From Escherichia coli (GTDB taxonomy: Bacteria > Pseudomonadota > Gammaproteobacteria > Enterobacterales > Enterobacteriaceae), in assembly GCF_048403405.1 (NCBI RefSeq), contig NZ_CP183129.1: 64,000 nt of DNA, one strand, 5' to 3'. How positions within the stretch are numbered: the stretch's first letter is position 1; the number at the start of each line of letters is the position of its first letter. A program made the translations under genes and the position numbers. The notes beneath the pieces are model-generated. The model had not been told where the DNA came from. It worked only from the letters and a program-made list of their open reading frames with translations, and made no database searches. Shown piece after piece: positions 40,307-41,910 of this stretch.

Positions 40307-40336
40307 GTTGTGCACAGAAAACCCCCAGCTAGGCTG

Positions 40337-41761
40337 TAATGCCGATCAGTTAAGGATCAGTTGACCGATCCAGTGGCTGTGTAAGAATCCGGAAACGCTC
40401 ACTTGTTTCCGGATTTTTTTATGCACATTGGACAGGCTCTTGATCTGGTATCCCGTTACGATTCTCTGCGTAACCCACTGACTTCTCTGGGGGATTACCT
40501 CGACCCCGAACTCATCTCTCGTTGCCTTGCCGAATCAGGTACTGTAACGCTACGCAAGCGCCGTCTTCCCCTCGAAATGATGGTCTGGTGTATTGTTGGC
40601 ATGGCGCTTGAGCGTAAAGAACCTCTTCACCAGATTGTGAATCGCCTGGACATCATGCTGCCGGGCAATCGCCCCTTCGTTGCCCCCAGTGCCGTTATTC
40701 AGGCCCGCCAGCGCCTGGGAAGTGAGGCTGTCCGCCGCGTGTTCACGAAAACAGCGCAGCTCTGGCATAACGCCACGCCGCATCCGCACTGGTGCGGCCT
40801 GACCCTGCTGGCCATCGATGGTGTGTTCTGGCGCACACCGGATACACCAGAGAACGATGCAGCCTTCCCCCGCCAGACACATGCCGGGAACCCGGCGCTC
40901 TACCCGCAGGTCAAAATGGTCTGCCAGATGGAACTGACCAGCCATCTGCTGACGGCTGCAGCCTTCGGCACGATGAAGAACAGCGAAAATGAGCTTGCTG
41001 AGCAACTTATAGAACAAACCGGCGATAACACTCTGACGTTAATGGATAAAGGTTATTACTCACTGGGACTGTTAAATGCCTGGAGCCTGGCGGGAGAACA
41101 CCGCCACTGGATGATACCTCTCAGAAAGGGAGCGCAATATGAAGAGATCAGAAAACTGGGTAAAGGCGATCATCTGGTGAAGCTGAAAACCAGCCCGCAG
41201 GCACGAAAAAAGTGGCCGGGACTGGGAAATGAAGTGACAGCCCGCCTGCTGACCGTGACGCGCAAAGGAAAAGTCTGCCATCTGCTGACGTCGATGACGG
41301 ACGCCATGCGCTTCCCCGGAGGAGAAATGGCGGAACTGTACAGTCATCGCTGGGAAATCGAACTGGGATACAGGGAGATAAAACAGACGATGCAACTGAG
41401 CAGGCTGACGCTGAGAAGTAAAAAACCGGAGCTTGTGGAGCAAGAGCTGTGGGGTGTCTTACTGGCTTATAATCTGGTGAGATATCAGATGATTAAAATG
41501 GCGGAACATCTGAAAGGTTACTGGCCGAATCAACTGAGTTTCTCAGAATCATGCGGAATGGTGATGAGAATGCTGATGACATTGCAGGGCGCTTCACCGG
41601 GACGTATACCGGAGCTGATGCGCGATCTTGCAAGTATGGGACAACTTGTGAAATTACCGACAAGAAGGGAAAGGGCCTTCCCGAGAGTGGTAAAGGAGAG
41701 GCCTGGAAATACCCCACAGCCCCGAAAAAGAGCCAGTCAGTTGCTTAACTGACTGGCATTA
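40337..41761 (+). mobile_element. IS4 insertion sequence (about 1.43 kb)
   Basis: 18-bp terminal inverted repeats taatgccgatcagttaag (40337-40354) and cttaactgactggcatta (41744-41761, 16/18 match); flanked by an 11-bp direct repeat cagctaggctg at 40326-40336 and 41762-41772. Confidence 0.9.
40403..41752 (+). CDS. insG: IS4-family DDE transposase
   Basis: 449-aa ORF filling the element (probable start a few codons in at MHIGQ); recognised as the IS4 transposase. Confidence 0.88.
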
Positions 41762-41910
41762 CAGCTAGGCTGGGGGTTCCGGAAAGCTTTCAGCTTTGAG
41801 CCAGTTATTAAAACCCCTTTTGATTTGTTAAAACACCTTGCGGTCTGGCAACTGCAAGTGTCAAACAAGAAATCAAAAGGGGGTCCCAATGGGGAACGAA
41901 AAGAGCTTAG

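Follow-up and report, generated by a model that had tools for sequence, protein, structure and literature searches.

The IS4 copy downstream of glcA lies in the left-end terminator hairpin of another insertion sequence, IS200C, of which a short stub survives. In the window (the whole stretch of E. coli DNA that was analysed, 64 kb), the locus is very probably the product of four separate events: the insertion of IS200C, the transposition of IS4 into its terminator hairpin, an unrelated 15.3-kb deletion and the decay of the insG transposase gene. The element is an ordinary IS4, already annotated at the same position in reference genomes. The features from glcA to the end of the IS200C stub are the following.

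38585–40267, plus strand: glcA (glycolate permease), the last intact upstream gene (open reading frame list; CFT073 RefSeq annotation, offset 31336).
40270–40310, plus strand: intrinsic-terminator hairpin of glcA, with IS200C directly 3′ of the hairpin (inverted repeat; comparison with K-12).
40308–40336, plus strand: left piece of the IS200C remnant, about nt 1–29, start ambiguous by 1–2 nt (alignment with EC2257, RM14723 and K-12).
40326–40336, strand not applicable: left copy of the target-site duplication, 11 bp, CAGCTAGGCTG.
40337–41761, plus strand: IS4, 1425 bp, with the left inverted repeat at 40337–40354 and the right inverted repeat at 41744–41761.
40421–41752, plus strand: pseudogene of the transposase gene insG, 443 codons when read from the ATG, with TTG at 40403 as an alternative start.
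41762–41772, strand not applicable: right copy of the target-site duplication, 11 bp, CAGCTAGGCTG.
41762–41927, plus strand: right piece of the IS200C remnant, about nt 19–184 (alignment to intact IS200C; Rfam STnc490).

The terminal inverted repeats of IS4 are 18 bp long, TAATGCCGATCAGTTAAG on the left and TAATGCCAGTCAGTTAAG (minus strand) on the right, and match at 16 of 18 positions. CAGCTAGGCTG occurs exactly twice in the window, as perfect copies abutting both inverted repeats, and none of 100 dinucleotide-preserving shuffles gave any match for this pair. Neither a second IS4 end nor a second IS200C hairpin was detected elsewhere in the 64-kb window. Compared with the annotated K-12 IS4 (1426 bp), the copy has five substitutions and a 1-bp deletion (99.6% identical, 1420 of 1426 positions). 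Copies in numerous other E. coli, CFT073 and ATCC 25922 among them, are 100% identical to it and bear the annotation "IS4-like element IS4 family transposase". Membership in the IS4 family is supported by the near-identity to the type element, a single open reading frame for a DDE transposase with the YREK motif, the short inverted repeats and the length of the duplication, whose 11 bp fall within the IS4 range of 11–13 bp (other IS4 copies have 11–14 bp). The InsG translation contains the Pfam domains DDE_Tnp_1 (4.6e-32) and Nterm_IS4 (3.1e-33), and the Y(2)R(3)E(6)K motif, as defined in the IS4-family review (PMC2266710), is visible in it.

Removal of the element and one repeat copy reconstructs the empty site AAAACCCCCAGCTAGGCTGGGGGTT, which folds into a hairpin of -18.7 kcal/mol (stem 10 bp, loop 3 nt), the 11-bp duplication being centred exactly on the loop. 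The alignment of the window, K-12, EC2257 and RM14723 places this palindrome at about nt 11–35 of IS200C and identifies the target as the left-end terminator hairpin of that element, not native glcA–gspK DNA. In K-12 the glcA terminator hairpin runs directly into the sslE upstream region, without the 712-bp element there; in EC2257 and RM14723 the 712-bp IS200C stands directly after the glcA terminator, with no IS4 at the site. Nucleotides 12–34 of IS200 were described as a bidirectional rho-independent terminator, protecting the element against external transcription (PMC4513863), and the position of the hairpin in the window agrees with this published terminator. The Rfam model STnc490 starts with the same hairpin and matches the window at 41756–41879 with 120.5 bits (gathering score 56), the IS4 end standing in place of the 5′ hairpin arm.

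Uninterrupted AAAACCCCCAGCTAGGCTGGGGGTT was found in 8 other E. coli genomes with the arrangement glcA–IS200C–sslE, contiguous with the window flanks over 500 bp on the left and, as far as the deletion point, over 155 bp on the right. The preliminary description of this DNA had reported an IS4 with near-perfect 18-bp repeats and an 11-bp direct repeat, an interrupted palindrome as its target and a simple transposition as its origin, and had proposed the alignment of the empty site with related genomes as a check. The repeats are present at the positions it gave, the palindrome is borne out by the folding, and the simple transposition agrees with the intact duplication and with the 8 genomes without IS4, in which both flanks are joined as predicted and colinear, none of them having a differing flank. 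What did not hold is the reading of the palindrome as native intergenic DNA, since it belongs to IS200C and is absent from K-12 at that position.

Intact IS200C aligns colinearly with the 184 nt around IS4, which contain 1 mismatch relative to EC2257. The left piece comprises the terminator hairpin's left half together with the left copy of the duplication, and the same 29 nt precede IS4 at 6 other loci. The right piece holds the right hairpin half, the tnpA 5′UTR stem-loop (art200/STnc490 region) and tnpA codons 1–13 (41889–41927). Among the features of the IS200/IS605 family, the left-end subterminal hairpin, interrupted by IS4, and the 5′UTR structure are present; the Y1 (HUH) tnpA is reduced to 13 codons, and the right end is deleted. 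The flanking IS200C is a remnant, not a functional element, and its mobility was presumably lost through the split hairpin.

What is left of tnpA, 13 codons, continues out of frame into gspK and gives a predicted chimeric tnpA/gspK open reading frame (41838–42053). It is 71 aa long when started at an upstream TTG and about 55 aa when started at the tnpA ATG (41889), and it is preceded by the intact IS200 5′UTR and Shine-Dalgarno region.

The proposed course of events begins with the insertion of IS200C into the ancestral glcA–sslE spacer, directly downstream of the glcA terminator, a step documented by the 8 genomes that keep this state. The second step, documented by the duplication, is the transposition of IS4 into the hairpin at IS200C nt 12–34, where 11-bp staggered cuts centred exactly on the dyad produced the two copies of CAGCTAGGCTG. 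The cut-and-paste DDE chemistry of this insertion is suggested by the family membership of IS4, which has a DDE transposase with the YREK motif.

To the right of the IS200C stub the window continues with the remains of the T2SS-beta operon.

41927–41928, strand not applicable: deletion junction between IS200C nt 184 and gspK nt 561 (BLAST of the window against the EC2257 glcA-to-yghD region and inspection of the junction).
41929–42345, plus strand: 'gspK, the surviving 3′ part of the gene for the T2SS-beta minor pseudopilin (Pfam T2SSK; RefSeq partial pseudogene).
42342–43519, plus strand: gspL, frameshifted pseudogene (mapped CFT073 annotation).
43521–44057, plus strand: yghD/gspM, intact, tail of the T2SS-beta operon (mapped CFT073 annotation).

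The junction 41927|41928 shows no microhomology and no shared bases. It joins IS200C' to 'gspK 166 bp to the right of IS4, so that the direct glcA/gspK junction at the insertion sequence, as first described, does not exist. Missing relative to EC2257 are 15,330 bp, comprising the rest of IS200C, sslE, pppA, gspS2, gspC–J and the 5′ 560 nt of gspK. The breakpoints are neither IS4 ends nor IS200C ends, and an IS end abutting non-colinear DNA without a matching duplication, the mark of an IS-mediated rearrangement breakpoint, is not seen here. Because the breakpoints are not IS ends and there is no microhomology, no insertion sequence is implicated in the deletion. In the proposed course this is a further step, in which a separate deletion of about 15.3 kb, documented by the junction, joined IS200C nt 184 (tnpA codon 13) to gspK nt 561. 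IS4 did not cause the loss of sslE and the T2SS-beta cluster in this lineage, which includes CFT073, ATCC 25922 and another 168 complete genomes.

Beyond gspL and yghD/gspM, to about 50761, the CFT073 annotation gives ABC-transporter and CDP-glycerol glycerophosphotransferase genes, and this region downstream of the T2SS remnant resembles a group 2 capsule region.

The distribution of both events was analysed in a population set of 5,426 complete E. coli genomes. The left IS4 junction was detected in 170 of the 5,426 genomes and the right junction with the deletion in 170 of 5,426, all 170 carriers having both events. The deletion junction with an empty IS4 site, searched with the reconstructed empty site joined to 'gspK, was found in 0 of the 5,426 genomes; the only record covering at least 80% of this query was RM14721, which has an unrelated, IS1-bounded deletion. 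IS4 in the glcA-linked IS200C with sslE present was likewise found in 0 genomes, and only 7 genomes covered at least 80% of that query, all without the IS4 part. A deletion without IS4 would read CCCCCAGCTAGGCTGGGGG followed by GATGGAACGCGCGTGG within 160 bp, and IS4 without the deletion would read GGCATTACAGCTAGGCTGGGGG followed by GATGGAACTGTAAATATC next to glcA.

The preliminary description had concluded from the intact duplication that the junction predates the insertion. That inference is not warranted: when both breakpoints of a deletion lie outside IS4 and its repeats, the duplication survives in either order and cannot date the deletion. The 5,426 genomes, for their part, show both events or neither. 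One order puts the deletion first, with IS4 entering the surviving IS200C stub later. We give it a little less than an even chance; it is compatible with all the data, the stub keeping the hairpin, which is all that IS4 needs, and against it stands the lack of any genome among the 5,426 with the junction and an empty IS4 site, while the intact duplication does not discriminate. The other order, IS4 first, into a full-length glcA-linked IS200C, and the deletion afterwards, is equally compatible with the data and in our judgement just as close to an even probability. IS4 in full-length IS200C is common elsewhere (58 genomes), but the intermediate state with sslE was not seen next to glcA, the 7 genomes at 80% or more of query coverage having no IS4 part.

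Both events are shared by an O102:H6 strain (L013), whose IS4, duplication and deletion junction are those of the window. Its insG copy carries its own inactivating mutation at the same locus, C1105T, resulting in a stop at Q341, and has neither T999A nor the 1-bp deletion of the window lineage. Since this strain shares both the IS4 insertion and the deletion, with a different inactivating mutation, the two events predate the split of the carriers.

Over the compared region, 31337–46581, the divergence of the window from CFT073 and from the O102:H6 strain is roughly 2% in the glc operon, as far as 40153. From 40153 through IS200C'::IS4–'gspK the sequences are nearly identical, with 0–3 differences in about 3 kb, and the O102:H6 strain diverges again from about 43000. 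This pattern suggests recombination with a breakpoint near 40153, within the 3′ end of glcA, and the haplotype of IS4 and deletion appears to be shared among diverged backgrounds.

The window copy lacks the C of IS4 nt 1366 (at about 41701/41702), and comparison of the translation with K-12 InsG shows that the last 14 residues are replaced, so that the copy does not encode the intact transposase of an autonomous IS4. Three InsG substitutions relative to K-12 were detected, G304A, D305E and R326L, of which D305E (41335) is specific to the window lineage. The identical CFT073 copy is annotated in RefSeq as an insG pseudogene, "frameshifted". Point mutations in insG followed the IS4 insertion, with the 1-bp deletion and D305E arising in the window lineage and the Q341 stop arising separately in the O102:H6 strain. 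We infer that transposase activity was lost through the C-terminal frameshift, and the window IS4 is probably a fixed, immobile relic with intact ends.

The IS200C hairpin has been hit by IS4 at other loci as well. IS4 in intact IS200C, in the orientation of the window, was detected in 58 genomes. The same position and the same 11-bp duplication were found, in window orientation, at the sampled loci flgL–rne, the Rpn/IS66 island, DUF3927'/hypT and hflC–yjeT, and in the opposite orientation at ecnB–sugE and mlaA–fadL, the mlaA–fadL copy being an IS4 variant with 11 SNPs. In total, IS4 stands in IS200C at the same nucleotide at at least 7 loci, in both orientations. The ecnB IS200C has an empty hairpin in 69 genomes, which shows that IS200C was there before IS4, as at glcA. 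That IS4 copies of opposite orientation, and a variant, occupy one and the same nucleotide demonstrates independent hits, and at least three of the IS4 hits on the IS200C hairpin are independent.

These copies also bear on the idea that a pre-formed IS200C::IS4 composite came to the glcA site, through transposition of the unit by the IS200 TnpA or through IS200C–IS200C recombination. Five loci with the same IS4 orientation and duplication, and the failure to find an empty IS200C at flgL, would agree with it, and in single-stranded DNA pairing could still take place between arms of 35 nt, 86% complementary, formed by the outer stem and the inverted repeats of IS4. We nevertheless consider it improbable for the window, since 8 genomes have IS200C without IS4 at the exact glcA position, the left-end hairpin needed by an IS200-family TnpA is split by 1.4 kb, the opposite-orientation and variant copies are independent hits, and 69 copies at ecnB are empty. 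For some loci, IS200C may have moved together with IS4 or spread by recombination, since no empty IS200C was found at flgL–rne among the complete E. coli genomes. Separate insertions of IS200C and IS4 are the preferred reading at glcA. That IS4 itself made the glcA/gspK junction and sits at its breakpoint, whether through an adjacent deletion or through recombination of one IS4 copy with another, would account for the 15.3-kb deletion lying within 170 bp of IS4 and for the presence of IS4 in all genomes with the deletion, but is very improbable given the same 11-bp duplication at both IS4 ends, the contiguous IS200C on both flanks in genomes without IS4, and a breakpoint 166 bp off, inside the IS200C tnpA and not at an IS4 end.

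The target rule of IS4 was analysed with the IS4 loci from two InsG protein look-ups, from which 13 distinct target sequences were reconstructed. AAA(A) lies 3–4 nt upstream of the 11–14 bp duplication in 12 of the 13 targets, and TTT(T) lies 3–4 nt downstream of it in 12 of 13. Ten of the 13 targets are GC-rich hairpins (-14 to -21.5 kcal/mol) built like bidirectional terminators. Intergenic terminator-hairpin targets, with the duplication centred on the hairpin, were detected at opgH–yceK, adhE–tdk, aroA–ycaL, raiA–bamD, rpoD–mug and degS–mdh; at opgH–yceK, IS4 stands in one orientation in some genomes and in the other orientation in others. The site of the resident K-12 IS4 is AAA-N20-TTT; the IS200C site is AAA-N20-TTc, with only TT on the 3′ side, an imperfect match to the A/T-tract rule.

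IS4 probably landed in the IS200C hairpin because the site fits this rule, an A-tract 3–4 bp upstream and a T-tract 3–4 bp downstream of the duplicated 11–14 bp. Target capture would be guided by the flanking A- and T-tracts, and bidirectional intrinsic terminators would supply the A-tract/T-tract layout sought by IS4. The palindromic target is typical IS4 behaviour, not an oddity of the glcA locus.

Every IS200C copy examined is located directly 3′ of a host terminator-like hairpin ending in a T-run (glcA, flgL, ecnB, mlaA and near hypT), and for this reason IS200C too appears to home to terminators. Reversed nesting was observed in E. coli LR-58-1 (NZ_AP027553.1; positions 1725–3861 of L040), where, at the K-12 IS4 locus yjgZ–nanX, a complete 712-bp IS200C lies inside IS4, between IS4 nt about 47 and 51, right after the left-end hairpin of IS4 itself.

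We lean, by a modest preference, towards the hypothesis that IS4 is in practice a terminator-seeking element, that the IS200C left-end terminator is a recurrent hotspot for it and that IS4 and IS200C target each other's terminators. If this is true, IS4 breaks up the IS200 hairpin at every hit, and the IS200 copy concerned is probably disabled. The literature searched contains no statement that most natural IS4 targets are bidirectional terminator hairpins or that the IS200 terminator is repeatedly hit, and no description of IS4 and IS200 targeting each other's terminators. The IS4-family review (PMC2266710), in its available text, gives duplication lengths and nothing more on target choice, and the available text of a Shigella IS paper does not mention an IS4 target preference.

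The significance of the locus is small, as the region consists only of pseudogenes (the IS200C stub, 'gspK and the frameshifted gspL) around a decayed IS4. The set of natural, precisely defined IS4 targets, terminator hairpins flanked by A/T-tracts, is of modest interest for transposon biology. Insertion at terminator hairpins avoids gene disruption, and the IS200C hairpin provides an easily testable model site for target selection by IS4-type transposases.

The closest known system is the K-12 IS4 (insG, b4278), the type element of the IS4 family, which shares with the window copy the 18-bp ends (16 of 18), both transposase domains, the YREK motif and a duplication within the 11–13 bp range (12 bp in K-12). 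The window copy differs from it by being 1 bp shorter (the C lost at nt 1366), by the three InsG substitutions and by its genomic site. Compared with intact IS200C, the window retains only nt 1–184, with the terminator hairpin split and the right end gone. In RM14721, as in the window, the T2SS-beta operon is truncated beside glcA with sslE lost and the gspL/gspM tail remaining, but an IS1 stands exactly at the RM14721 junction (positions 3431–4808 of L004), next to a differently truncated 'gspK, whereas the window junction has no IS end. This independent loss, from sslE through the 5′ part of gspK, shows that the T2SS-beta/sslE cluster was deleted more than once; in K-12, where the loss left the yghE–yghF gap and likewise the gspL/gspM tail, the breakpoints are other than in the window. 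For the target, Mayaux et al. reportedly proposed in 1984, from the pheST attenuator, the IS4 consensus 5′-AAA-N20-TTT-3′. The resident K-12 site and the spacing of the A- and T-tracts at twelve other reconstructed sites agree with it. The IS200C site is like this consensus in the AAA and the N20 spacing and differs in its shorter T-tract (TT), and the recurrent targeting of the IS200 terminator, with the predominance of bidirectional terminators among natural IS4 sites, extends the known consensus and does not overturn it.
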